Source of the DNA: Callorhinchus milii
Taxonomy: Eukaryota
DNA: 64,000 nucleotides
NCBI RefSeq assembly: GCF_018977255.1
Contig: NW_024704742.1
Span: 35,652,001-35,716,000, forward strand
Reading direction: 5' to 3'
Positions 10,615 to 46,700 of this stretch are shown piece after piece. A program made the translations under genes and the position numbers. The stretch's first letter is position 1. Every line of letters starts with the position of its first letter. The notes below the pieces were generated by a model. It did not search any database. It had not been told where the DNA came from and worked only from the letters and a program-made list of their open reading frames with translations.

Positions 10615-10622
10615 TATAAATA
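10615..10622 (+). promoter_or_regulatory. Candidate TATA box of FGF5
   Basis: TATAAATA about 150 nt upstream of the FGF5 ATG, in a visibly CpG-retaining region. Confidence 0.6.
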
Positions 10623-10656
10623 TCTCTGTGCCAGCAGCACTGGCTTTCGCGTGGAT

Positions 10657-10731
10657 ATGTCTGGTGGACACACCACACACAGCGGCTGGTGCATGGAGCA
10701 GAGAATCAGCAAAATGCGGACATTGCCCTAG
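10657..10731 (+). other. Upstream ORF in putative FGF5 5' leader (24 aa, [24 protein letters not shown])
   Basis: Three in-frame ATGs (10657, 10693, 10714) and TAG at 10729-10731, all between the TATA box and the main ATG. Confidence 0.55.
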
Positions 10732-10763
10732 CAGGGACCACTCGGGAAAGATCTGTTGGAATA

Positions 10764-11031
10764 ATGCGCCTTTTATGCTTCCTCCTCTTTCTGAAGCATC
10801 TCGCCTGCATTGCTTTTGGACACGGCGAGCAGGTGAAGTCTGCAGAGCCTCTCCAAGACACTACAAACAGCTCCTCTGCCTCCCAGAGCCGCAGATCACT
10901 GAGGAACATGTACCAGTGGAACAGATCCGGGCCCCGAACTGGACTACTCTATTGCAGAGTTGGAATTGGATTTCATTTGCAGATTCACCCCGATGGTAGA
11001 GTCAGTGGCTCACACGAAGCCAATCTGTTCA
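10764..11031 (+). CDS. FGF5: Fibroblast growth factor 5, coding exon 1
   Basis: ATG at 10764 opens a hydrophobic signal-peptide-like stretch ([19 protein letters not shown]) followed by the FGF5-type core [36 protein letters not shown]. Phase-1 donor A|GTAAGT at 11031/11032. Confidence 0.96.
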
Positions 11032-12655
11032 GTAAGTGTTTATTTCAAACAAACTCGCACGACAACGCCAAACGCTGTAACATCCACAAAGCCAATCATT
11101 ACCAACATAATATAGTCCACGGATAGTATTTTTTTTATGCGGGAAGTGTCTATATAGTTTATGAATGTGTACAGCATGTACAGTAAATGATAACTTCAGT
11201 TGCCTTTGGGGTACATTATATCAGCACGACTGTTTTTTTTTGTGTGCAAGTGAATTGCTTCTGTTACATCCGACACACAGCGCAAAACAGACCAAGATGC
11301 CAATGTGATGAAACTGTGCGAGAGATACGGTCCATCCAATAAAGTAACAGTCAGCTCGATGGTGACATTTCAATGACATTGTATTTGAGGACTGTATCCC
11401 CTGATCATGTCTCGGGGTGCTGTGGCTTACAGTATTTCCTTACTGTCGATGCATGTGATTGAACGATCAATGTGGACGTGACAGAAGAAAAAAAACAACG
11501 AAACGTTTCAGCTAAGAAACGGGAGGGCACAGAGCAAACAAATAATGTTTTTTTTTAAATGAACCGATTTTCCGCAAACCTTATCGCGGACGTTGCTGTA
11601 CCGAATGACTGCAAGGCTGCAAAGCGTGTTGTTTGCAAAGCTATTTTTAATAGAAATATTGATTTTGTGATGGGTGCATCAGAGGTCAGGTTGTGTGGCC
11701 CGCGTTCATTGTGTGGTCATGTTAAACTGCTAAGTATGTTGGTAACAGGTGCAGGCAATAGGGAACTGGATGCTTGGAGTGATTGGGTTAGTGCACAGTG
11801 CGGTTGTTTGGGCTCTAATATATTACATCAACGCATTCATTGCCAATTGCCTGTTATCAGGGAAATGCAGATATGTGTGATACTATCTCAATCTTGCGTG
11901 GATTTCTTCGGTTTAATGCCGAATTTGGATCCGACGGCCAATGCAAAAAACAGAAATCGAGTTTAACGTTGAATTGACTTATGTGCAATAATGACTCGCG
12001 TTAAATCCTACGGATAATCCATTCGCACTGAGAATGGTTATGTAAAAAGCACCGCATGCGAATCAATTTGTTGTTGGCCAAAAGCGAACAACAACAAAAA
12101 AAAAACACACAAATCTCGTCGTATGGGTGTGAAACGTGAAATTTTCCAACTGTTCATTTTAGAAGACAGTTTAAAGGTTTCTTGTCAAAACTAAATAAAA
12201 TAATTTAAAACGACACAATTCAAAATTTATGATTTGACTTGATTTTGCAAACGCATTCGAAAACTTCACGGAACAAAGATGGGAATAAACGATTTAGTGA
12301 TGTGAAAATTGTGTACTGACAGTGTCACTTGCAACGTGAAATGCGAGTATTTTAATGTCCTGCAGTTTACAAGTTTTGTCATTCAACAGCACCGTATTAG
12401 CGCAAAACTGGGGTACACCAAACAGATGAATAAATAGCCCATATAATGGCAGCCCCGCTATTTTTAGAAGGAACAACACAAGGTGCATATTTTTGCAATG
12501 AAAATCTTTGTAGTGATTCTAAGAATATGGTGCCATCTGCGACCAAAGGTGAATTATGCATTAACACAAGAAACTTGCATTGGGGCTCGTTCCTCCTCAG
12601 GCAGCGCATGTGAAACCCTCAGCAAACAGTTTTACTTGTAACATTTCAATTGCAG

Positions 12656-12759
12656 GTATTTTGGAAATATTCGCTGTGGCTCAGGGCACAGTGGGGATAC
12701 GAGGAATTTTTAGCGACAGATTCCTAGCGATGAATAAAAAAGGGAAAGTCTACGCAACG
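12656..12759 (+). CDS. FGF5: FGF5 coding exon 2 (104 nt)
   Basis: Acceptor ttgcAG|, encodes (S)[34 protein letters not shown], donor ACG|GTGAGT. The 104-nt length is typical of the FGF middle exon and the phases join exons 1 and 3 in frame. Confidence 0.97.
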
Positions 12760-15134
12760 GTGAGTATTACTGTGCTCACTGGTCACTTAAGGATCACACA
12801 ACAATTCTGTTCATTCACAGGAAGAAGCAGTATTTGGATAAAAGTCTTTATGCCTCACATGTTCAACGTGCTCATGTCCAACGCTGTTAGATGCATCTAA
12901 ATATTTACCAACTGAAATCTTTTTGAATATTAGTTAAATTGTGTATGGATAGGTTTGATTGTAAAATTAAAATAAAAGTACCCCCTGTGCTCAGAACCAC
13001 ATCTCACTATAATCCTGTTCCTTGTAACAGATTCTAATAACTTAACCACAAATCCTGCCAGAGTGACACGACTGTGCAATATAACTACTAGGGGATAGTT
13101 TTCGAAAGAAAGATATTGCAGTTTTACAGCACATTTTACGTCAAAACGTCTCAAAGTTCTTTACAGCGATTATTGTCAAGTGTAGTGACTGTTTCGAAGC
13201 CAAGCTAAATAAACTTTCGAAACAATGTTAACGTCCTCAGTCGTTCACAACAAATGCTGACATGATCTGAAATATTTAAAATATTTAAATATTTGAAATG
13301 CATATTGATAGAAGGGGCAAATGTTTTATTTTTTTTAAAAATCTAAGTGTTTAATTTATTTAGTATATAGCCAAATAGCCCATTTATCAATGGAGGGATA
13401 ACATAATTAGAAAACTTCGCATATGTAGAAATAGTTATAACGAATTAATATCATTATGAACAATTGTAGCTTTTGGAAAGACAACAGTGGAACGTATTGA
13501 ACAAACTTGAATAAAACTTCGCTTCAATTATAAGATATCCTGCTCATTTGACTTTCAGAATAAGGGACCCAAAGGCTGTTCAAGAATAGTTTTATCCCCA
13601 TTGTATATACCACCATTATTTTAACCACAAAGTGATAGGGTTTTGCTTCAAGCCCTTAAACTGAATATGGATTGAGTCTACTTGATGTTTAGGATTGCAA
13701 GAAATTGACGAGAAGAAGCACATCTATCAAAGCTAAAATTAAGTAATTGGATTTTGTTCCAAATCCCAAGCATATAAATTGGCATTTGATCTAAATTACC
13801 TTCTGTTGGTATGATTAAAATTAATGCAATTAACGTTAAATGCCATCTGACTCGCCTGGTCATGGCTGGGTGAAGTTCTGTGGTTGCTTAATAAGTTTTC
13901 GAAGTACAGTACTGAGAGAATCCTGTGCCTGCCACTTACTGCTGCGCTCTGATAGAACTCAATCTGTCCACTTCCAGCTCAAATGCAGATAAAAGTTAAT
14001 GGTAGAAATAATTCTGCAATCTACCAAACCTATTGGACTATTACGTTGTGATTGTGCTCCCGTCCTTCCTTTTCTTATCTTGACTCGTCTGCTGACAGTC
14101 TTTCCCCAAAATACAGATGGCTCCATAATTAAATCAGTAAGTGGGTTCGAAGGATATTGTATTGCAGCGTTTTACGTGTCCTAGCAATTATCAATCGTCG
14201 CCACACATGAGATTTTCCTTCAATTTCTCAAGAGAATTTGACATATTTTGCAATTCTGCATGTTTTACTTCAGGTTAATTGAGTTTCTCAGCCTTCTGAC
14301 TGCGCTGAAAGTGTGAATTGAGAGCCTACCGAACATAGATGACTTTTTGCAAAAGTAAATCCCTTGTATTTATTTACAAGTTTCTGTAAAAAATTTCATC
14401 TAAATTCTCGAAAACATCGCAATTTTCAATTCTTTGGAAGTGGATGCCACAGAATCAAATTGCAGAGGATCTTTTCCATTTTTATTGTTGCCTGGCCTGG
14501 CGGAATTTTATTACAAATTCTGGTCACTTCAAAAGCGTTGTGAGAGAGGTGCAAGAGGACGTTATGTAGATTCAGTTTCTGATAGCTATAAACATATTTT
14601 AGACTAAAGCTATAAAGTGTCGTCTCTCCTGAGACTGCCCGTTTTCTAAGTCAATTCCCTCATTTATAAAAAACCAAATAACCATATGGTAGCATTCAGA
14701 CCAATCTCTACATCAAATGCACTTAAAAAAGATTGGAGTTTAAAATAATGAACTCCGGATATCACACAGTAATGATTGCATTTTGGAGTTTTAATGCCTA
14801 AAGATGTTTGTGATTTGCCTTTTCACCCTCATTTTCCAAATTTTCACTAGATACCAGTTATGTGTAAAGAAACCATAATTAGTTTCCTTATTGAAGATTT
14901 TAACTTGCATCTGGGTTATCCATTGGCTCACAGCCCTGTCTCTTATCCAGCTTGGAGTCTCAGTACCCTGGGTGATTGACTCTGTTGTACACTGTTGTGT
15001 GAGTACAGAGTAGATTTCCAATCAGCTGCTTAATCAATAGAAAGTGTATACTGTACTTCAAGAAGAAGATTCAAACCAATAAGTAACTTTTATTTCAGAT
15101 TTCAGAATCTTACTCTCCAAAACAAAGGCATAAA

Positions 15135-17005
15135 AACAACAACAAATTACACTTGTACAGGCCCTTTACATTGGAAATACATCCCACTGCGCTGGACAAT
15201 CAGGTGTTTTGGACCCGAGCTGGGAGTTGGGGTCAGAAGAGGAGGAGGCCAGGGAGGATGGGTGTGGAAGGGTGTCTGAAGGCATGGTCCAAGAGGAAGG
15301 TCTGCAAATGGGATTTGAAGTAGGCAAGAGAGGGTGTGAGGCGGAGGGTTTGCGGGATAGAGTTCCAGAGTGTGGGGACAGAGATGCTGAATGACCGACC
15401 GTCAAAGGTGGGGTGGGAAATTCAGGGGACCTGAAGTCGGCCGGTGTCCGCCAAGCAGAGGGAGTAGACAGGCTGATATGGGGTTATGAGGTCGGAGATG
15501 TAGGAGGGAACAAGACTGTGGAGGACCTTGAAGATAAGAGCAAGGGTTTTGTATTTGATTCTCTGAGGAATGGGGAGCCAGTGAAGCCGGACAAGAACGG
15601 GGTTGATGGAGCTTGGTGTGGGAGAGGACATGAGCTGCAGAGTTCTGAATAATCTGCAGCTTGCGGAGGTTAAAGTCCAATGAGCAGGCAGTTGGCGTAG
15701 TCAAGCCGAGACAGAATGAAAGAGTGGATCAGGGTCTCTGCGGCCTACGGTAGGAGGCAGTGGCAGAGGCGGGCAATGTTATGGAGGTGTGGAAAGGCGG
15801 AATGGGTCACAGTACAAATGTGAAGTTTGAAGGATAGCTGAGGGTCGAAAAGGACACTGAGGTTTTGGAATGACTCGTTGAGGTGAAGAGTGCAGCCATG
15901 AATGATGATAGTGCCAGGGGCTGAGGTGAGGAGGCACTGCCTGGAGCCAAACAGGAGGGCCTCTGTCTTGCCAACATTGAGCTGGAGGAAGTTGGCTCCA
16001 GGACTTGATGTCAGACAGTCAATTAGTCAGGACATCAATGGTCCAGGAGTCGAGAGTGGAGGCAGTGAGACAGAGTTGCGGATAACATTGCTGAGCAGGA
16101 ACATGTACAGATTGAAGAGGAGGGAACTGAGGACAGAGCCCTGAGGGATGCCACATGTGAGTGCGGGAGCTAGAGGAAAACCTGTTGGTGGCCATGAAGT
16201 GCAGACGGTGGGAAAGGTAGGATTGCAAACGGACAAGAACAGAACCATTGAGGTGGAGGTGAGAAAAGAGGTGGTAGAGAAGAATAGAGTGGTCAACAGT
16301 ATCGAAAGTAGCTGAGAGGTCAAGAAGGAGGGGAGACAGAGAGAGCCCTGGTCGCAGGTGGACAGAATGTCATTTGTCATTTTGACCAGGGCTGTCTCTG
16401 TGCTGTGAGCAGCACGAGATCCAGATTGGAGGGATTCATGGAGGGAATGCAGGGAGAGGAGATCGAAGCTGGGAAGTGACGACTCGTTCCATGACCTTTG
16501 ATAGAAAAGGAAGGTTTGAAATGGAGCGGTAATTGGAGAGCAGAGATGGGTCAAGGGAAGATTTTTTGAGGGTAAGAGTGCTGACAGCTGTCTTTAGGGG
16601 GATGGGTACGGTGCCAGTGAACAGGGAGACGTTAACAAGATCTGTTAGTAGGGGGGCAAGGAGGTGGTGCTGGGGGCTGAGAAGAGGGGTAGGTCAAGGG
16701 AGCAATTGGTGAGTTTTGTACGGGAAATGATGGAGGTGAGCGAAGAGGGGGAGACAGGGTCAAAAGTGTGGAGGAAGGGATGGGGGGGCAGGAAGGGGAG
16801 CGGGAGGTGGGGACAGGGTCCTGGTAGAGGGGCTAGAGGCAGCAGAGCAGATACCTTGACTTTGGACTCGAGGAAATTCTTCATCTCCTCGCATTTGGTG
16901 TTGGAGGAGAGGATGGCAGAGACATGGGAGAGTGGATGGAGGAGTTGGTTTATGGTAGAAAATAGGAACCTGGGGTTGTCCTTAGCTTCCAAGATAATTT
17001 TGGAA
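15135..17005 (-). mobile_element. Decayed L2 LINE in FGF5 intron 2
   Basis: Minus-strand fragments [37 protein letters not shown] with many frameshifts; (CAA)n tail at the left end. A second isolated L2 3' tail lies at about 17009-17080. Confidence 0.9.
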
Positions 17006-18018
17006 TGCAACAACAACAGCAACAACGAAATTACATTTGCATAGCGCCTTTCACGTTGGGAGGATGTCCCAAAGCACTGGAATAAAAGGAGGATTTAGCT
17101 GAGGTGAGGATAGTGCGGTAGGTTTGACGGTGAACTGTTATTTTAAAAACAGCTTTAAAATATTTTGTTTATCTAAACCATAAATGAAATACATTTTGTG
17201 CAGAACTAATCTTTAATATACAACAAATCTAAAAATAATATACTGTTTTTCATACCCATGTATTGAATTTATGAAACTAGTTACCGCTTGTAGGAATTTA
17301 TCTAATGAATCTCTCTGATTATTGAAAGATATTTACATTTTAATTCTGTAAATGAGTTTTGAAGAAGCTATAGGAAAATATTGAGAAATTTCTGCGGCCT
17401 GGATATCTTCTATTTGGTATGAGGTACTTCACCCCGAATTAGACTTTGTTTCAAGAACAGAAAGATTGTATGCGCAAATATATTTATCCAGCATGCAAAA
17501 TCATTGTTTTATCCACTTTTACATTTGGGACAGATAGATATCTTCCCTTGAAGTGAGGATATTTTCTACAAAATTCCGAGACAAAACGTGGGGAAATTAA
17601 TTTGTCTGTACAGTTAACATGGAATGAATCCAACAATAAAATAAAAGGGAGTCTGCTGTGGATTCTTAGACCACAGGAATCGTTGGTGAAAATATATTTG
17701 AGTATAGACTCAGTAATTATCTTAATCCACGTAATTTATAACTGTACCTAAACTCACGGTATGGTGCCAATCTGTATGTGTGATACAAAAGTCTCTTATC
17801 GTTTTAATACAGTAAGCCCTCTCATTCCTCGCAACCTATCCAAACTCGGAGCCCAAGACTATGCCAGAACACAGGCCTTTGAATGAAGTTACTTCTTCCC
17901 TAGCCAATAATACACATAAATGTCAGGGTTAGATTGTTAACATGTTGGACCAAATCAAAGTGAAATGCCTGCTTTGAATGCGTTGTTCAAATGTTGATTT
18001 GGTTTTCTTATCTTACAG

Positions 18019-18369
18019 ACCAAGTTTACAAATGAATGCAAATTCAGGGAGAGATACCAAGAGAACAGCTACAACACTTATGCCTCAGCCACCTACAAAA
18101 ACTATCATAATGGTCGAGAATGGTATGTGGCTTTAAACAAACGTGGGAAAGCCAAAAAAGGGAATAGCCCTCGGGTGAAACCTCAGCACATTTCTACACA
18201 TTTCCTTCCCAGATTCAAACAGTCTGAGAAGGAGAAGACTTTTACCATCACAAAAAAAACTCCAGAGAGGATAACACCCCCTAAACCTCCCAAATTGCCT
18301 CCACCCGTCAAGGTCAGCAGGAAGAATACCAACACTGTTAAATACAGGCCTAAATTTCGATTTGGATAG
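18019..18369 (+). CDS. FGF5: FGF5 coding exon 3 to stop
   Basis: Acceptor tcttacAG|, encodes [68 protein letters not shown]...[28 protein letters not shown] and the KFRFG end are FGF5-diagnostic. Total CDS 723 nt = 240 aa. Confidence 0.97.
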
Positions 18370-25505: not shown

Positions 25506-26777
25506 ATTGAATGATATTTATTGCTGGAGACATTTTGAATGGTATCTGTAGACTGACTGGTCCAGCCATAGACTTGTTGACAGAAAACGTATTATTGGTG
25601 TCATTTGATTTATTCTGAGTGAAACATATTGTAGGATTGCCTACCTCCCTGGCTAAAATCAAGGAATTTGCTGAATTTTTGTTCATTTAGTTTCTTCTGC
25701 TGAAAGAAATAAAATTGTGGATATTGATAATGAAAATTTTAAAATTTATAACATACATTAAACAGGGATCTGCTAGCAAAAACAACAAATTCAACTTTGT
25801 CTTTGATAGCTGCACTACCCTTAGGAGTAAGATAAATGGGGGGGGAGGGGGTGTGGTGAGGCCAGATCACTGGACTCATACAATAGTTTTGTAGTGGTGT
25901 GGGAAGTAGATATGTACTCTCCTGAAGTTACTGAAATTGAGTTGAGCTGCAAATGTTGGTGATTCATTTGTCATAAGACAGAATTTTTTATCCTGCTCCA
26001 TTGCGTTACTTCAAGTTCTGAAAACCCCAGCAAATTTACAACCAGAATTTTGCTTGCTTTTCAGGATAAACAAAATTCATCAGTTATCACATTCATCAGT
26101 TGAACTTGTGTCAGCAGCTTAATCTCAATCACAGAGAATAAAGCATTTCCATGTCACACACAAAAATTTAAATTGCCTTCATCCATGAAACCATGTTCAA
26201 TTTTCTGTTTTGTTATCTTTATTCCTCACATTTGATGGACATAAATTCACTGAAGCATGTCAAAAAATTTCCTGAAAGTAAGAAATACATAACACTTTTT
26301 TTTACATTCGTTGAGTTGAATTTTAAAGTGCTCTGGTTTTGTCAAAACTTGTGTTCAAAGATTACTATAGAAGCAAATTGAGTAACATAGTCAAAGAATA
26401 ATGACACTATTACCTTTCTATAGCATCTGGTACAGTATAAAAATAAAACACATTGATTCCATCTCTTACCCATTTTGGGCAAACGTAATGAAACATTAAA
26501 TACAATGTACAGTAATACAATCTTCCAATGCCAGTCTTTCCACCTTGGATCCAGTGGCTTAGTGATAGCACTCTCGCTTCTGAGTCAGAAGGTTGTAGGT
26601 TCAAGCGCCAGGTCAGGAATTGGAATCACATCGTCTAAGATGATGTTTCAATGCTGTGCTGGGGGAGTGTTTCATTGTCAGAGGTGCCGTCCTTTGGATA
26701 AGAGGTTAAACCGAGGACTAATATACCTGTTCAGGGGGATGTTAAAGATACCAAGGCAAACCACTTTACATTATAAA

Positions 26778-27009: not shown

Positions 27010-28855
27010 TTCCTCAATCCCTCTCCCCACCGCCACCCAACCGACCTCCATCTCCTACTACCCCTGGAAAAAAATCTCCCCCCTCAGCTGCATTGGAGTC
27101 ATCTGAACTCCTTCCCCTCTGGGCGTCCTCCCGCAATGACCTATCCTCCTCTTCTCCACAACTCCCTCTCCTCCCAACCTGGCCCCTACCCATCCCTTCC
27201 TCCACATCTTTAAACCTGTCTCCCCCTCCTCTCTCATCACCACCATAGCCCATATGAAACCTACCACCTGCTCGCTCGACACCATCCCTACCCCTCTCCT
27301 TACCTCACAGCTCCACCTCCTTGCCCCTCTACTTACTAACATCGTAAACCTCTCCCTGTCCTCTGGTACTGTTCCCACACCATTAAAAAACGCTGTCATC
27401 AGTCCTATCCTTAAAAAATCCTCCGTGGCCCCTTCTCTACTCCCTAACTACCGTCCCATCTCCAACCTCCCCTTCCTCTCCAAGGTCCTGGAACGGGTTG
27501 TTGCTTCACAGCTTTGCTCCTTCCTCTCCCGCCACTCCCTTCTTGAACCCCTCCAATCGAGTTTCCGTGCTGCCCACAGCCCTGGTCAAAGTGACAAATG
27601 ACATTCTGTCTATCTGCGACCAGGGCTCCCTCTGCCTCCTGGTCCTCCTTGACTTCTCTGCTGCTTTTGATACCGTCGACCACTCTATCCTCATCCACCG
27701 CTTCTCCTCTCACCTGTCTCCATGGCGCTGATCTTGACTGGTTCAGATCGTACCTCTCACACCACCAGCACTTCATCTCCACAAACAGCTTCTCCTCTAG
27801 CCCCCGGACCATCTTGTGCGGGGTTCCTTAATGCTCTGTCCTTGGACCCCTCCTCTTCAACATCCATATGCTCCCTCTTGGTGACATCATCCGCAGACAT
27901 GGGGTCAACTTCCAAACGTATGCAGATGACACCCAACTCTACCTCTCTGCCTCCACACTTGACTCCAGGACCACTGCTGTGCTGACTGTCTGTCAGACAT
28001 CAAGTCGTGGATGAGAGCAAACTTTCCTCAGTTGAACGTCAACAAGACCGAGGCTCTCCTGATTGGGACCCGTCAGCGCCTCCACACCTCAGGCGCTGAC
28101 AGCATCACCATCCGTGGTTGAACACTGCACCTTACTAAGCCAGTCCGAAACTTTGGGGGTCTTGTTTGACCCTCAACTATCCTTTCTACCCCACATCTGC
28201 GCCATGACCCGCTCTGCCTTCCCCCACCTCCGCAACATTGTCCGGCTCCGACACTGTCTCACACCGCAGGCCACCGAAACCCTCATACATGCCTTCATTA
28301 CATCGAGGCTCGACTATGTAAACTCAATGCTTTGTCGGCTTCCCCAAGTCCTCCCTCCACAGGCTGCAGATCACCCAGAACTCTGCAGCCCGTGTCCTCT
28401 CCCACACCAGGCTCCGCGATCCCATCACCCCCATCCTCACCCGACTCCACTGGCTTCCCATCACACAGAGAATACAGTTCAAGATCCTGGTCCTCACCTT
28501 CAAAGCCCTCCAGTCTTGCTCCCCCCTACCTCTCTGACCTCCTAACCCCCTACCATCCTGTTCGCTCCCTCCGCTCAGCGGGCTCCGGCCTGCTTCACGT
28601 CTCACGCCTCGCTCGGCCCACTATCGGCGGACGGGCCTTCCGCCACTCTGCCCCCACTCTCTGGAACTCCATCCCCCAGTCCCTCCGTCTCGCCCCCTCC
28701 CTCGCAACCTTCAAGACCCACCTCAAGACGCTCCTCTTCGACCGTGCTTTTGATCTCCCTGCTTCCCCCCCACTGCCCTCCCCCACCCCGACCCCCGGCT
28801 CTGGTCCAGCGCCTTGGGATGTGAAAGGCACTTTACAAATGTAATTTGGTTGTTC
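27010..28855 (+). mobile_element. Decayed L2 LINE immediately upstream of the CFAP299 promoter
   Basis: [40 protein letters not shown] DNA, APTLWNSIP; 3' tail ends about 28854. Confidence 0.92.
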
Positions 28856-28879
28856 TCTCATTGTGAACCAGGGCTGTGG

Positions 28880-29195
28880 CCGGAAGTCACGGTTGCTACG
28901 GCAAACAGCTACTCAGTGACCGGAAGTCGCGGTTGCTACGGCAAACAGCCACGCACTGACCGGAAGTCACGGTTGCTATGGTAAACATCTGCTCACTCAT
29001 CGCGCCACGGTTGCTGTGGTAACAAGGGTGGTGACCCATCATCACACTTAACATGGTAAACAACGTGCACAGTGGCCGGAAGTAATGGTTGCTATGGTAA
29101 CAGCCTAGCCAATGGCCAGACGCCACGGTTGCTATAGTAAACAGACTGCCGGCGACCGGAAGTCACAGTTGCCAGGAGGCAGTAGTCGGGAAGTT
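28880..29195 (+). promoter_or_regulatory. CFAP299 promoter: tandem ETS (CCGGAAGT) and RFX X-box motifs plus CCAAT
   Basis: CCGGAAGT at 28880, 28920, 28960, 29076, 29156. GTTGCT...G(C/T)AA(A)C X-boxes at 28892, 28932, 28972, 29010, 29088, 29128. CCAAT at 29109. CpG-rich and directly upstream of a ciliary gene ATG. Confidence 0.85.
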
Positions 29196-29211
29196 TGTGG
29201 ATCTGTTAAAT

Positions 29212-29322
29212 ATGTTGGGCGACGCTTCAGGTTCGGCGGTGGACAATATTGTCACCGAGTTCGACACTTACGAGGATTTCTTGGACTCGCAGATCACGTC
29301 TCAGGATCTGTTCTATTTAGAG
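29212..29322 (+). CDS. CFAP299: Cilia- and flagella-associated protein 299 (C4orf22), coding exon 1
   Basis: MLGDASGSAVDNIVTEFDTYEDFLDSQITSQDLFYLE resembles the human N-terminus as I recall it (DNIVTQFNAYEDFLDSQITTVDLYYLE). Phase-0 donor GAG|GTCAGT. Syntenic with FGF5. Confidence 0.93.
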
Positions 29323-29386
29323 GTCAGTGGTCCTCACCCGAGCACCGCTCCCGCCCACAGCGGGTCAGCACCGGCACTGTCCCTCA

Positions 29387-30308
29387 CCTCTCACTGTGGT
29401 CAGTCTATACCTCTCACTGTGGTCAGTCTATACCTCTCACTGTGGTCAGTCTATACCTCTCACTGTGGTCAGTCTATACCTCTCACTGTGGTCAGTCTAT
29501 ACCTCTCACTGTGGTCAGTCTATACCTCTCACTGTGGTCAGTCTATACCTCTCACTGTGGTCAGTCTATACCTCTCACTGAGGTCAGTCTGTACATCTCA
29601 CTGTGGTTAGTCTATACCTCTCACTGTGGTCAGTCTATACCTCTCACTGTGGTCAGTCTATACCTCTCACTGTGGTCAGTCTATACCTCTCACTGTGGTC
29701 AGTCTATACCTCTCACTGAGGTCAGTCTGTACATCACCTCTCACTGTGGTCAGTCTATACCTCTCACTGTGGTCAGTCTATACCTCTCACTGTGGTCAGT
29801 CTATACCTCTCACTGTGGTCAGTCTATACCTCTCACTGAGGTCAGTCTGTACATCACCTCTCACTGTGGTCAGTCTATACCTCTCACTGTGGTCAGTCTG
29901 TACATCACCTCTCACTGGGGTCAGTCTGTACATCACCGCTCACTGTGGTCAGTCTATACCTCTCACTGTGGTCAGTCACTATCTCACCACTCACTGTGGT
30001 CAGTCTGTCCATCACTTCTCACTGTGGTCAGTCTGTATATCACCTCTCACTGTGGTCATTCTATACATCACCTCTCACTGTGGTCAGTCTGTGCGTCACC
30101 TCTCACTGTGGTCAGTCTTTACATCACCTCTCACTGTGGTCAGTCTGTACATCACCTCTCACTGTGGTCATTCTGTACATCACCTCTCACTGTGGTCAGT
30201 CTGTACCTCTCACTGTGGTCAGTCTGTACATCACCTCTCATTGTGGTCAGTCACTACCTCACCTCTCACTGTGGCCAGTCTGTGCATCACCTCTCACTGT
30301 GGTCAGTC
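29387..30308. repeat. Minisatellite, 23-bp unit CCTCTCACTGTGGTCAGTCTATA with a 28-bp variant (...CTGTACATCA)
   Basis: Roughly 35-40 tandem units starting 64 nt after the CFAP299 exon 1 donor; remnant units at 30489-30525. Confidence 0.97.
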
Positions 30309-30604: not shown

Positions 30605-31975
30605 ACATTTGTGTAACGTCTTTCACGTTGTGAGGATATCCCAAGGCACTGGACGGTCAGGGATTTGGACCCGGGCTAGGGTTCGAGATCGGGGAGGGTG
30701 GCTGAAGGTGTGGTCGAAGAGGAGGGTTTTGAGACGTGCCTTAAAGGAGGCAAGGGAGGGAGCGAGGCGAAGAGAATGTGGGATGGAGTTCCAAAGGGTG
30801 GGGGAAGAAATGCTAAAGTCCCGACTGCCGATGGTGGGTGGGCGGTCCGGATGGGGAACGTGGAGGAGGCCACATCCTGCTGAGCAGAGGGAGCGGACAG
30901 GTTGATATGTGGTTAGCAGATCGAGGAGGTAGGAAGGAGCAAGTCCGTGGAGGGCCTTGAAGGCGAGGGCGAGGATTTTGAACTCCATCCCCTGGGGAAT
31001 GGGGAGCCAGTGGAGCCGGGCGAGGGTGGGTGTGATGGGGCCACTGAGACCGGTGTGGGAGAGGACACGAGCTGCAGAGTTCTGGATGGACTGCAGCCTG
31101 TGGAGAGAAGAGAAGCCTCGATGTGATGAATGCGTGGATGAGGGTCCGGTGCCCTGAGGGGTGAGGCAGTGGCGGAGCCGGGGTGATGTTACAGAGGTGG
31201 GGGAAGGCAGAGCGGGTCATGGCGCGGACGTGGAGCAGAAAAGACAGTTGAGACTCAAACAGGACGCCAATGTCCCGGACTGGCTTAGTAAGGTGGAGTG
31301 AGCAACCATGGATGGTGAGGCTGTCAGCACCTGGGGTGAGGAGGCGCTGACGGGAGCCAATCAGTAGAGCCTCGGCCTTGTTGACGTTCAACTGAAGAAA
31401 GTTCGCTCTCATCCAGGACTTGATGTCTGACAGACATTCTGTCAGGACAGCAGTGGTCCTGGAATCGAGGGTGGAGGCAGAGAAGTACAGTTGGGTGTCA
31501 TCTACATACATGTGGAAATTGATCCCATGTCTGCGGATGATGTCACCAAGAGGGAGCATATAGATATTGAAAAAGAGGGGACTAAGGACAGCCCCGAAGA
31601 ACTCCGCACAAGATGGTGTGGGGGCTAGAGGAGGAGCCGTTTGTGGAGATGAAATGGACAGAACCGTGAAGGTTGAGGTGAGAGGAGAGGAGGTGAGATT
31701 CACATTTGCTTCAGTAAGAGATTCACATTTGTTTCAGTGGGTGCAAATCACAGTGGGCTTGCTTCCCTTGTGTGGTCCTTTGAAGGGAGTGTGGAGTGGG
31801 AGGGAGTCCTGTTTCAGTGCATTTGGCTCTTTAATAACATTCGGTGAACTGCAAAATCAAGTCTTGACAAAGGACATAGGACAGAGTCCTGAGAAATGCC
31901 GCACAAGATGGTGTGGGGGTGAGAGGAAACACCGTTTGTGGAGATGAAATGGAGATAGTGTGAGAGATAGGATCT
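30605..31975 (-). mobile_element. L2 LINE with an internal non-L2 segment (31698-31864) and duplicated L2 piece
   Basis: [32 protein letters not shown] motifs; non-L2 segment shared with about 55570-55724. Confidence 0.88.
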
Positions 31976-43662: not shown

Positions 43663-43793
43663 GATGAGGAGCTGGCTCGGCAGCTGGTGGAGCTGGGGTA
43701 CAGGGGAACTGGAGAGGTGCTGAAAAGAGAAGAGTTTGAAATGAGGAAGACAGCTGCTGAAGCTTCAAGAATTGCTAAGAGTAGCCAAAAAAA
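43663..43793 (+). CDS. CFAP299: CFAP299 coding exon 2 (131 nt; absent from the supplied ORF track in this frame)
   Basis: Acceptor ccattAG|, encodes [43 protein letters not shown](K/N), donor AA|GTGAGT. Continues exon 1 in frame and resembles human [29 protein letters not shown]. Confidence 0.94.
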
Positions 43794-46700
43794 GTGAGTA
43801 CATTTAAATTTATTGATAAAAGAAGATGTTTTGTAATTTAATGTTGGTCAAAGAAGCAAACCATAAATCTATTCTTTGGGGAATGTTAGTTGGACTGTGG
43901 AAAGGAAAGGGAGCTAATTTGAGGCTGGGGATTCAGGCTTTTTTCAATTCAGTTGGTTGCATAATATCATATTTCTATTTTTTTTTAGAATGTTTCTGTC
44001 ATCTCCAAGTGTTACATTTAGTACTTTGCAGTTACAATAAACAAACAAAAACCGATACAAAAGTACAACATTTTTGTGCCTGTTGATGGAATTTAGAAAA
44101 GCTGATCAAAGCTGCCTCTTGACAGTGTGACAACCCTCCTTAAACTGCAAGAGCAACAGGTTTGCTTTGTCAAATAGCTTCATTGTTCCTGCCTCCACAT
44201 TAACAGTGGTTAGCTTCCACGATTGTAGGCACCTGCATCTTTCAGTCATTTGTCTAATCATTTGGTTGTCAAGTTCACCAGGTTAAGGGTTTGTGATGGA
44301 CTCTCAGACTAAGTGTCTTGAGGGCAAACAAAGTACTTAACAGACCACCAGTTAAGCAAATTTAGTTAAAGTAAACAATGAGATGTACTTCAAGGCAGCT
44401 GAGGTCTAACGTTTGTATAACTGACCGGGTAATTCCTGATTCATTTTAATGACTTAAAATGTACCCAGCAAAAAGTCCACACTGTTCACATCTGAACGGT
44501 GCAGATTATAATGTAACATGGAGATTGTTGGGTCTTTGGCAACTTCACGTGGAAAAGCATTGAGCATTATATTGTTTGATAATAATGTACATTTCCCCTA
44601 AAATAGTTTAGGTAAATAATATGTGTGGGTATTATTTGCTGATGCTGAATATTGCTAGCCATTACGGATGTGTTTTCTTATCTTGGAAAATCCCCTGTAT
44701 ATATATTAATGAAATCTAATCTGTAAATAGACTTGCCTGGATTTGATAAAAATGTGTTTAAATTGATATTCATCAGTTTTTGAGGTGCTCTGCAATCTGA
44801 TGCAAATAAGTTTAACTGATTAAAAATGATTTTGTACAATGCTGGAAGACACAAAAATGATTAATTAAAACACGGCCAGACATTTGGGAACAGCATTTAG
44901 TTTCCAACAACCGTATCTGTAAAGTAGGTAAGAAGTGTTGTGGCTTGGCTGTGTTTAATGAAAAAAATGTTGATTTTTTTATTTCTGTACTTTTTGATTG
45001 TTGGACATCTTTACAAGCATGTTTGTGTAGGCTTGTAGACTTAAAATATTGATTTTTTTAATATGAAATCTTGACACTGAAGAGGCAAAATGAAATAATG
45101 TTTACAAATAAGTAAACTACAATGTGAGTGGTAGTTTTCACAGTGATATAAACATTCAGGGTGCAGTGTGACTACGCCCTTACTACTTTTTACTGTTAGT
45201 AGTTTGGATAATGCCTAGCAGAACCTGTTTAGCATCTGAAACTTAATTTCCCAACACACTCAATAAGAATTTTTGTATTTTTGCTTAGATTGAGAATATG
45301 CACTCCACACACTAAAATATTGTACCGTAAAGAGCTTGCGGTTCAAGTACAATTACATCACAGTTTTGTAGAGTGAAGCGTCTTCATGTAGAGTTGCTAA
45401 CATGGTGTTAGGTAGCGTCCAGTTTTACACTTATGTTTACATTAATGAATTGGGGGAATCTTGATATTTTAGGTCTTTATAGGATTGTGCATTGTTCATA
45501 GTTCATTTTTATTTCATAATAGTAATCCTTGCATTTGATATTGCGCCTTATCATGTCTTCTAGACGTCTCAAAGTGCTTCACAGAATGTACTGTAAAATG
45601 TATCAACTGTATATTTTGTGGGCGAAACGCGGCAGCCAATTGCGCACAGCAGTGTCCCACAAACAATTGTAGATTAAGCGATCAACAAGAGAAAGAATAA
45701 CACTACTTCCAGAGCAGTGAACCAGTCAGCAAACATCAAACACCTACAATCAACCCGAAATTAGAAAACAAAACAAAAGATGATTTTAAGAGAATACAAA
45801 GAAAAGTATACATGTCCATATCTCTCTACTTTGAAGTTCATCAGGAATCAAATGTATCTGGTTTTATTATGTTTTGGTAAATTGCTGATGAAGGTGAGGG
45901 ATGCCATGAAGGTGAAAATAGCTTAATTTTCCAGTAACTTTGGATGTTGCTACCATTATGAATAGTTGTTTAGGTTGTAGAATCACACTCATTGGGACTA
46001 GGTTTATACCCTAGGGTCTGTGCAGTCATCATAGAGAGATGCTTCCATGCTATTAATAGAGCTGAATTCAAACTCTGGCTTCAGAGGGGAGAGGCCAGTA
46101 ATGCCAATCTACCTTTCAGTTCCCTCAGTCCAATTCCTCTTGAAATGCTTCAGCTGAATCAACATTTACGTTATTTGGTGCTGATCTGCAGTGTAAGATA
46201 ACAAACTTTGAGAACTTTATCTTGAATTTACATTTAGAATGTGGATATTTCAGCTTGGGGTCCTGAAATAGCCTCAAGGGTTGGCTTTCACCAAACTGCA
46301 CCTAATACTTTCTGAAATTGGGTAAATAGGGAAATAATGTGCATTCCACTTCCAGATAAGAGAAGATTTCCAATGTGAATATGGCAAATATATGTGGAAC
46401 TCAGTCTGGTTTGGATACTCTTAAGCAGGGGTCTCCAACCAATTGCTGCTAGGTGGCCCTTTCACACATGATCAAAAAGGCAAGAAGAAGGAGCAATAGA
46501 ACTGTGTAGTTATTTAGTCCAATTGAAAATGAAGCCAGATGCATGCATCTTGGAATAAAAATATAAACTATTATTTAAACTGCAATAAATATCGCTCCTT
46601 CCTGTTGTCTTTATTGAGCATGCATGAGAGATCCCCTAGTTCCGTTCGATGGCTAGTTGGGTCCCATAGTTGCATTCCCTGCTCTTATGCATGGAGATGT

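Follow-up and report, generated by a model that had tools for sequence, protein, structure and literature searches.

The window analysed here, a 64,000-nt stretch of Callorhinchus milii DNA, carries in front of the cilia gene CFAP299 an array of eight head-to-tail units with ETS sites and X-boxes. We consider it probable, with moderate confidence, that this array is a ciliary promoter driven by RFX and amplified as a minisatellite whose units carry the motifs; ETS would be a loosely spaced partner in it, and each binding step in this reading is a prediction from motif content.

A founding monomer of ~40 bp would have combined an ETS site, a CRCR flank and an X-box with a right half often doubling as a forkhead site. 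Tandem duplication of this monomer produced the array and a 196-bp block duplication followed; the copy number would still be changing by unequal exchange. As the proximal, TATA-less, CpG-rich promoter of a motile-cilia gene, the array would be bound by RFX2/3 at several X-boxes as a homotypic cluster, giving cilia-specific activation. Next to five of these X-boxes, ETS factors of class I (ELK/FLI/GABPA type) may hold open a promoter squeezed against a LINE and contribute activity of their own, and the GTAAACA cores may serve FOXJ1. The 4-nt distance (N4) between ETS site and X-box goes back to the founding unit; it would allow co-binding, is perhaps mildly favoured, and would not amount to a strict code.

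The array in front of CFAP299

The owner of the promoter was established by its coding exons. The exon 1 frame from 29212 matches Pfam PF14713 in a profile search (E 8e-7) and the solved CFAP299 chains (E 5e-10), and exons 1 and 2 are 100% identical in tblastn to the C. milii CFAP299 protein from UniRef (P0002). The gene 3′ of the array thus codes for a ciliary protein, and the original prediction was right to name CFAP299 and to place the array in promoter position before the ATG at 29212; all X-box sites of the array lie within 330 bp of this ATG. The main features of the locus are as follows.

27155..28854, + strand: 3′ part of a LINE, its tail abutting the array (similarity to other copies in the window, reverse-transcriptase-like ORF pieces, multicopy depth ending at ~28854-28860); we take it to be of L2/CR1 type
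28876..29191, + strand: complete array of eight units of ~40 bp at a single-copy locus; units 1-3 recur as units 6-8 (lag 196)
29107..29115, + strand: CCAAT box AGCCAATGG, fitting the NF-Y consensus; it lies in the linker that joins unit 6 to unit 7
29176..29322, + strand: exon 1 of CFAP299; contigs cover the leader from 29176 on, coding part 29212-29322, donor GT at 29323
43663..43794, + strand: CFAP299 coding exon 2; tblastn identity of 100% with P0002, AG/GT borders

The CpG observed/expected ratio is 0.75-0.93 across 28601-29400 versus 0.42 in the whole window, and no TATA box was found in 28861-29330. Contigs of two runs from two studies, which we guess to be RNA (no run with this stretch is recorded as RNA), cover 29176-29323 and 29186-29323 and then leave at the splice donor; contigs of this kind cannot fix a start site, and they give a weak hint that transcription starts near the end of the array. 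The stretch 28861-29159 is uncovered by both runs, which carries no weight on the start site.

An L2 tail ~25 bp upstream had been described, and the boundary was indeed located at ~28854, where multicopy depth and similarity stop, 26 bp 5′ of the first ETS site. CFAP299 intron 1 contains, from ~60 bp onwards, a 23-bp, CpG-free minisatellite of ~37 copies (29386-30308); the promoter and exon 1 are thus enclosed by this tandem array on one side and the LINE tail on the other. Several other observations were made in this neighbourhood. Two L2-type copies in opposite orientation (27155-28854 and ~30620-31950), ~79% alike, have their 3′ ends flanking the promoter and exon 1; an ETS-like GGGAAGT lies inside the leader at 29188-29194, 32 bp past the unit-8 ETS site; and exons coding for an FGF domain (Pfam PF00167) lie upstream on the + strand at 10620-18369. 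The human gene order is FGF5-CFAP299, and the FGF exons sit where human has FGF5.

The core of the original prediction, five CCGGAAGT-N4-GTTGC elements, reads as described: they start at 28880, 28920, 28960, 29076 and 29156, all on the + strand, with spacers CACG, CGCG, CACG, AATG and CACA. While the window contains five such elements, 100 dinucleotide shuffles contained 0.00 on average, and CCGGAAGT occurs nowhere else in the 64 kb. The units read as follows.

28880..28905, + strand: unit 1; ETS site CCGGAAGT, spacer CACG, X-box with three mismatches
28920..28945, + strand: unit 2; ETS site, spacer CGCG (CGCA in contigs of both DNA runs), X-box with three mismatches; place of the extra unit in run X1
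28960..28987, + strand: unit 3; ETS site, spacer CACG, X-box with two mismatches, its right half overlapping a forkhead core GTAAACA at 28981
28998..29023, + strand: unit 4; ETS slot lost (6/8 changed), spacer CACG, X-box with two mismatches
29047..29063, + strand: unit 5; degenerate X-box (three mismatches to GTTRCCATGGYAAC), no ETS site, full forkhead motif GTAAACAA at 29056; missed earlier
29076..29101, + strand: unit 6; ETS site, spacer AATG, best X-box (one mismatch)
29116..29143, + strand: unit 7; decayed ETS slot CCAGACGC in register (3/8 changed), spacer CACG, X-box with three mismatches, GTAAACA at 29137
29156..29176, + strand: unit 8; ETS site, spacer CACA, left half of an X-box only

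X-boxes had also been reported at 29010 and 29128, each preceded by CGCCACG, and both are present with this flank (at 29003 and 29121). The list of X-boxes was correct as far as it went, but a seventh X-box-like 14-mer, at 29047, had been passed over; likewise the X-boxes called full are there, but those of units 1, 2 and 7 each carry three mismatches. In total, seven 14-mers of the array are within one to three mismatches of the X-box consensus GTTRCCATGGYAAC, out of 10 such 14-mers in the window, giving seven X-box-like sites and one half site within ~290 bp. Every unit retains at least half an X-box, while the ETS site was lost in three of the eight.

Duplication history and divergence of the units

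The anchors of the X-boxes are at 28892, 28932, 28972, 29010, 29047, 29088, 29128 and 29168, with steps of 40, 40, 38, 37, 41, 40 and 40. An exact 40-bp period had been noticed for the first three units and is recovered by TRF (period 40 at 28876-28995); given the two steps of 40 at the 3′ end, the last three units too are exactly 40 apart. Self-similarity is strongest at lag 196 (identity 0.615) and next strongest at lag 40, and units 1-3 align with units 6-8, as expected from a 196-bp block duplication. Tandem duplication, the origin already suggested for the array, is borne out by the eight units in register together with this block duplication. Units 1-3 are mutually alike at 32-36 of 40 positions; in unit 8, no more than 2-5 of 14 linker positions agree with the other units, yet its ETS site and GTTGC are retained.

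Depth over the array in DNA runs was 6-8, compared with ~200,000 on the L2 tail. Given this single-copy depth we reject the view that the array came from a transposon. A similarity search found no array-like stretch elsewhere in the 64-kb window, and we saw no displaced array units 5′ of the L2 copy; a lone X-box-like 14-mer with three mismatches at 26747 corresponds to the background rate (three outside the array in 64 kb). Head-to-tail units of ~40 bp at a single-copy locus fit the definition of a promoter minisatellite (VNTR) with units of 10-60 bp.

Four runs contain most of the stretch, and two of them, both DNA, were compared; one (X4) has the unit number seen in the window. In the other (X1) a contig runs over 28825-28950 and then restarts at 28911, which adds one 40-bp unit. 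Its junction joins letters specific to unit 2 and letters specific to unit 1 within <31 bases; since an assembly graph of two alleles of normal length would not produce such a junction, we infer that the allele with an extra unit is real. Provisionally, as the extra unit comes from one contig and not from reads, copy number of the array likely varies via unequal exchange. Both runs have G>A at 28931, which alters a spacer letter and keeps spacer length; X4 also has A>G at 29060, within the forkhead core of unit 5 and a short way 3′ of the left half of the unit-5 X-box.

Divergence was counted against the consensus in the seven units with a GTTGC anchor (unit 5, which lacks the anchor, was left out). 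The tests treat related units as independent in an alignment anchored on GTTGC, so that, with relatedness and gene conversion ignored, the p-values are indicative: linkers departed from the consensus at 34 of 84 positions; the ETS slot did so at 9/56 (p=0.003), the spacer at 4/28 (p=0.012) and the remaining X-box positions at 14/63 (p=0.02). When units 1-3 were collapsed to one, the probability of at least three intact ETS 8-mers in five was 5e-4 at the linker rate. The claim that motifs hold while linkers differ thus stands, linkers having proved less conserved than motifs (34/84 versus 9/56 departures in the ETS slot). The 4-nt spacer is as conserved as the motifs and is not free to vary. 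Being less divergent than the linkers, the ETS, spacer and X-box columns look selected, though short-tract gene conversion could mimic selection on motif columns.

These counts bear on the possibility that the array is mostly a neutral promoter minisatellite, with one or two proximal units (within units 6-8) doing the work and the rest being by-products of slippage or gene conversion in a repeat-prone, CpG-rich region. The likely variation in copy number, the close likeness of units 1-3 and the 37-copy minisatellite nearby in intron 1 are what one would expect of such turnover. Still, the columns of motifs and spacer are better conserved than the linkers even with units 1-3 collapsed, and units 4, 5 and 7 keep X-box or forkhead sites in spite of diverged linkers. 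The substitutions at 28931, in the spacer, and at 29060 were also weighed against neutrality; as A>G at 29060 alters the unit-5 forkhead core, it lends no support to constraint at unit 5. We judge mostly neutral turnover decidedly unlikely.

Overlooked in the first reading of the sequence were the likely variation in copy number and the forkhead core GTAAACA in the right halves of three X-boxes (28981, 29056 and 29137; three in the array versus 0.08 expected from the window rate). The extra A that spoils several X-box right halves is what creates these cores. Among FOXJ1 peaks of human airway cells, GTAAACAA occurs with RFX motifs 1-9 bp upstream (PMC13720309, in the part available). CAP-SELEX for FOXK1-RFX3 gave a single count for the overlapping geometry of X-box and forkhead site, which makes simultaneous binding of RFX and FOX to one unit doubtful; RFX dimers and forkhead proteins may instead alternate on a unit.

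Conservation of the spacer bases even in units 4 and 7, which lack an ETS site, raises the question of a third factor, with the unit acting as an RFX/forkhead toggle and CACG belonging to a site of its own, either an ETS-bHLH composite or an extended RFX flank, so that the spacer itself would be a motif. In agreement with this, CCGGAAGTCACG matches the core of NRCCGGAARTCACGMN, the composite seed of BHLHB2-FLI1; what remains of unit 5 is close to a plain GTAAACAA; and a CRCR/CGCG flank 5′ of the X-box is common to the chimaera units and to two groups of CFAP299 loci described below, one with ETS sites and one without. Yet the next position of the composite seed (M) is not matched, being G here, and AATG stands in unit 6, the unit whose X-box is best. 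RFX ordinarily prefers a CG flank 5′ of GTTGC (SGTTGC seeds), which makes a third factor unnecessary. RFX proteins prefer a longer CG flank as well. A third factor seems to us very improbable.

Spacing between ETS site and X-box

The original prediction took the invariant N4 as a sign of cooperative binding. The array itself does not support this argument: the five elements are copies of one ancestral unit, and so the spacing represents one event rather than five. Moreover, the chance that none of 3-5 indel events in the array hits the spacer is 0.51-0.67, and with a common monomer this makes N4 invariance weak evidence. In its strong form the idea would be that class I ETS factors and RFX bind cooperatively only at N4, that this spacing is selected and that the multimer amplifies a cooperative module. 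That all five intact ETS sites keep N4 agrees with it as far as a single event can.

Independent evidence on spacing came from published CAP-SELEX data (PMC12119339), where the available part of Table S7 lists the orientation of the window for five ETS-RFX pairs. N4 is ~2.2-2.6-fold enriched for two of the five. For ELK3-RFX3, with ACCGGA followed by GTTGCC, gap 7 (equal to N4) has a count of 26, the maximum for this orientation, against an expected 10-14 (p 2e-5 to 2e-3 depending on the baseline); for RFX5-FLI1 it has 35, the third highest, against 16-21. These raised counts favour the strict-spacing view. On the other side, gap 7 is not raised for RFX5-ELK3, ELF2-RFX3 and ELF4-RFX3, the peak is broad (gaps 5-7), and both positive pairs score higher in other geometries (ELK3-RFX3 reaches 38 in another orientation). 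The only ETS-RFX composite motif in the portion of the 2025 screen available to us, NMGGAAGNGTTGYYAN for ETV4-RFX3, has N0 (MGGAAGN followed directly by GTTGYY); the array, with four extra bases, does not match it. An older RFX3-ETV7 seed has a different layout.

Mammalian conservation also tells against a strict code. In the conservation table of the same study, ELK3-RFX3 tail-to-tail at gap 7, a row whose correspondence to the window orientation we inferred from k-mers, shows no excess conservation over controls (q=0.60), and for RFX5-FLI1 at gap 7 the q values are 0.48-0.82 in the three orientations available; since this table is noisy, with scattered zeros, it is weak evidence. The available parts of PMC7504069, PMC13216069, PMC5838959 and PMC13017510 contain nothing on ETS-RFX spacing.

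We also scanned metagenome contigs with the exon-1 alignment and obtained 59 CFAP299 loci, including intronless and protist-like records; none of them has similarity to the array. An X-box is present within 400 nt upstream in 27 of the 59, and more than two X-boxes in none. Orthologous promoters thus manage with two X-boxes at most, a point in favour of neutral turnover in the chimaera array. In 15 of the 27 (11 distinct loci from one clade, with third-codon identities of 0.50-0.92) an ETS site lies just 5′ of the X-box in the same orientation, while the other X-box-bearing locus groups of the scan lack an adjacent ETS site. A protein matching this clade (P0164) falls outside vertebrates in a protein tree (97/99), which left its phylum unplaced; we refer to it as the invertebrate clade. 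Its promoters have, in order, a conserved forkhead-like TTACTTATTTAC, an ETS-type CCGGA(A/T)GC (with single variants), six bases and the X-box. The gap between ETS site and X-box is 6 in 10 of the 11 loci and 10 in one; neighbouring gaps vary while this one holds, the distance from X-box to ATG ranging over 4-44 nt. A further ETS-like site, in tandem, is present in three of the 11.

The promoter of this clade, at L023:640-720 and in 14 related loci (L004, L006, L026-L029, L032-L037, L040 and L050), is sharply footprinted, with a double TTACTTATTTAC and a 15-bp X-box. A second group (L002, L014, L015, L018, L020, L021 and L024) has a single X-box, GTTTCTAAGCAAC, after GCGCG, ~50 nt before the exon-1 match, and is the group without ETS sites mentioned above. 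Searching with the upstream read-through frame yielded exon-1 matches only, and a profile search of representatives confirmed the CFAP299 family and nothing further. In mammal-like exon-1 read-through ORFs (P0242, P0258, P0199 and P0276) upstream residues fit X-box codons, twice in P0242 and P0258; the repeats in these two are a hint, given that back-translation is ambiguous, of a short duplication in another lineage.

With regard to strict spacing, the invertebrate clade speaks both ways: its gap is fixed where the adjacent one is not, but it is fixed at N6, a spacing not enriched in vitro. The same spacing was not found in an independent lineage, as the only other lineage with the pair uses N6 and mammals give q=0.60 (one non-vertebrate clade and the mammalian table being the material compared). 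For N4 as a cooperative geometry the evidence is mixed: it is favoured in vitro for ELK3-RFX3 and FLI1-RFX5, but three of five pairs show no preference, ELK3-RFX3 pairs at N4 are not conserved above controls in mammals, and the invertebrate clade uses N6. We regard a strict ETS-RFX spacing code as unlikely, although a serious contender, and retain the RFX-driven minisatellite promoter as the preferred reading. Nevertheless, the in vitro peak at N4 for two pairs and the fixed gap of the invertebrate clade point to more constraint on spacing than this preferred reading assumes.

To judge by motif order, the three factor classes and the arrangement of ETS site before X-box recur in a distant animal at another spacing; this is one lineage, and either descent or convergence could account for it. 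One may go further and suppose that the CFAP299 promoter follows a grammar of ancient animal origin, in which forkhead input joins an ETS site just 5′ of the X-box. The invertebrate clade would have it as a single forkhead/ETS-N6-X-box module and the chimaera as an amplified unit, ETS-N4-X-box/forkhead. In the chimaera, ETS and RFX would bind cooperatively at a distance preferred in vitro by human ELK3/FLI1-RFX pairs, and expression of this motile-cilia gene would be tuned by a copy-number variant that segregates. In this full form the supposition is quite unlikely.

The locus is a natural series of units with and without an ETS site and with and without forkhead overlap, and alleles of both eight and nine units probably exist. 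Here one could test directly whether an authentic ciliary promoter makes use of an ETS-RFX spacing preference seen in vitro. Should spacing turn out not to matter, what is left is an unusually dense X-box cluster from ordinary repeat turnover, of modest interest.

Comparison with known systems

The MNS16A promoter VNTR at TERT, as far as the available source describes it, resembles the array in its head-to-tail units, a site in each unit and variable copy number. The INS and HRAS1 VNTRs are also promoter minisatellites with factor sites. The array differs from such VNTRs in being the core promoter itself, in being old enough for diverged linkers and in having two or three factor classes per unit.

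What the array has in common with promoters driven by RFX1-3 (PMC7498320; Quigley and Kintner, 10.1101/085571; both as far as available) is the presence of X-boxes near the beginning of a motile-cilia gene. The bound regions described in the available part of PMC7498320 have mostly one site, or 2-3 closely spaced ones, whereas the array has seven X-box-like sites and a half site in tandem. No linked motif that could point to the partners giving RFX its target specificity was found de novo in RFX-bound regions, according to the same part of that study. More than one X-box per ciliary gene is known from C. elegans (Chu et al., PMC3245922), where non-additive effects were demonstrated; the gene tested there has two X-boxes, and the available text mentions no tandem repeat or ETS partner, unlike the array.

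The CAP-SELEX pairs of PMC12119339 share with the array an ETS site followed head-to-tail by GTTGY and the N4 enrichment for ELK3-RFX3 and FLI1-RFX5. They differ in that the named composite has N0, N4 is not the best geometry overall and is not conserved above controls in mammals, and no natural multimer is mentioned in the material available from that study. At human airway cilia genes (PMC13720309) an RFX motif lies directly 5′ of GTAAACA(A), as in the array; here, though, the forkhead core replaces the right half of the X-box and is repeated, and the available text of that paper nowhere contains 'ETS'. An ETS factor, ETS1, has been implicated at regulatory regions of cilia genes (PMC10359609), but according to the accessible part of that report it acts apart from RFX and FOXJ1 and no composite element is proposed, unlike the arrangement in the array.

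Among titles and the beginnings of abstracts, with poor coverage of subscription papers, we found no description of a CFAP299 promoter of this kind or of a tandem ETS-X-box array, and a search turned up no RFX ChIP or knock-down data for C. milii. Taken singly, multiple X-boxes, an ETS input at cilia genes and in vitro spacing preferences of ETS-RFX pairs are already known. Compared with these systems, the array does not clearly fit a composite with strict spacing; it would work like an RFX ciliary promoter and is built as a promoter VNTR.
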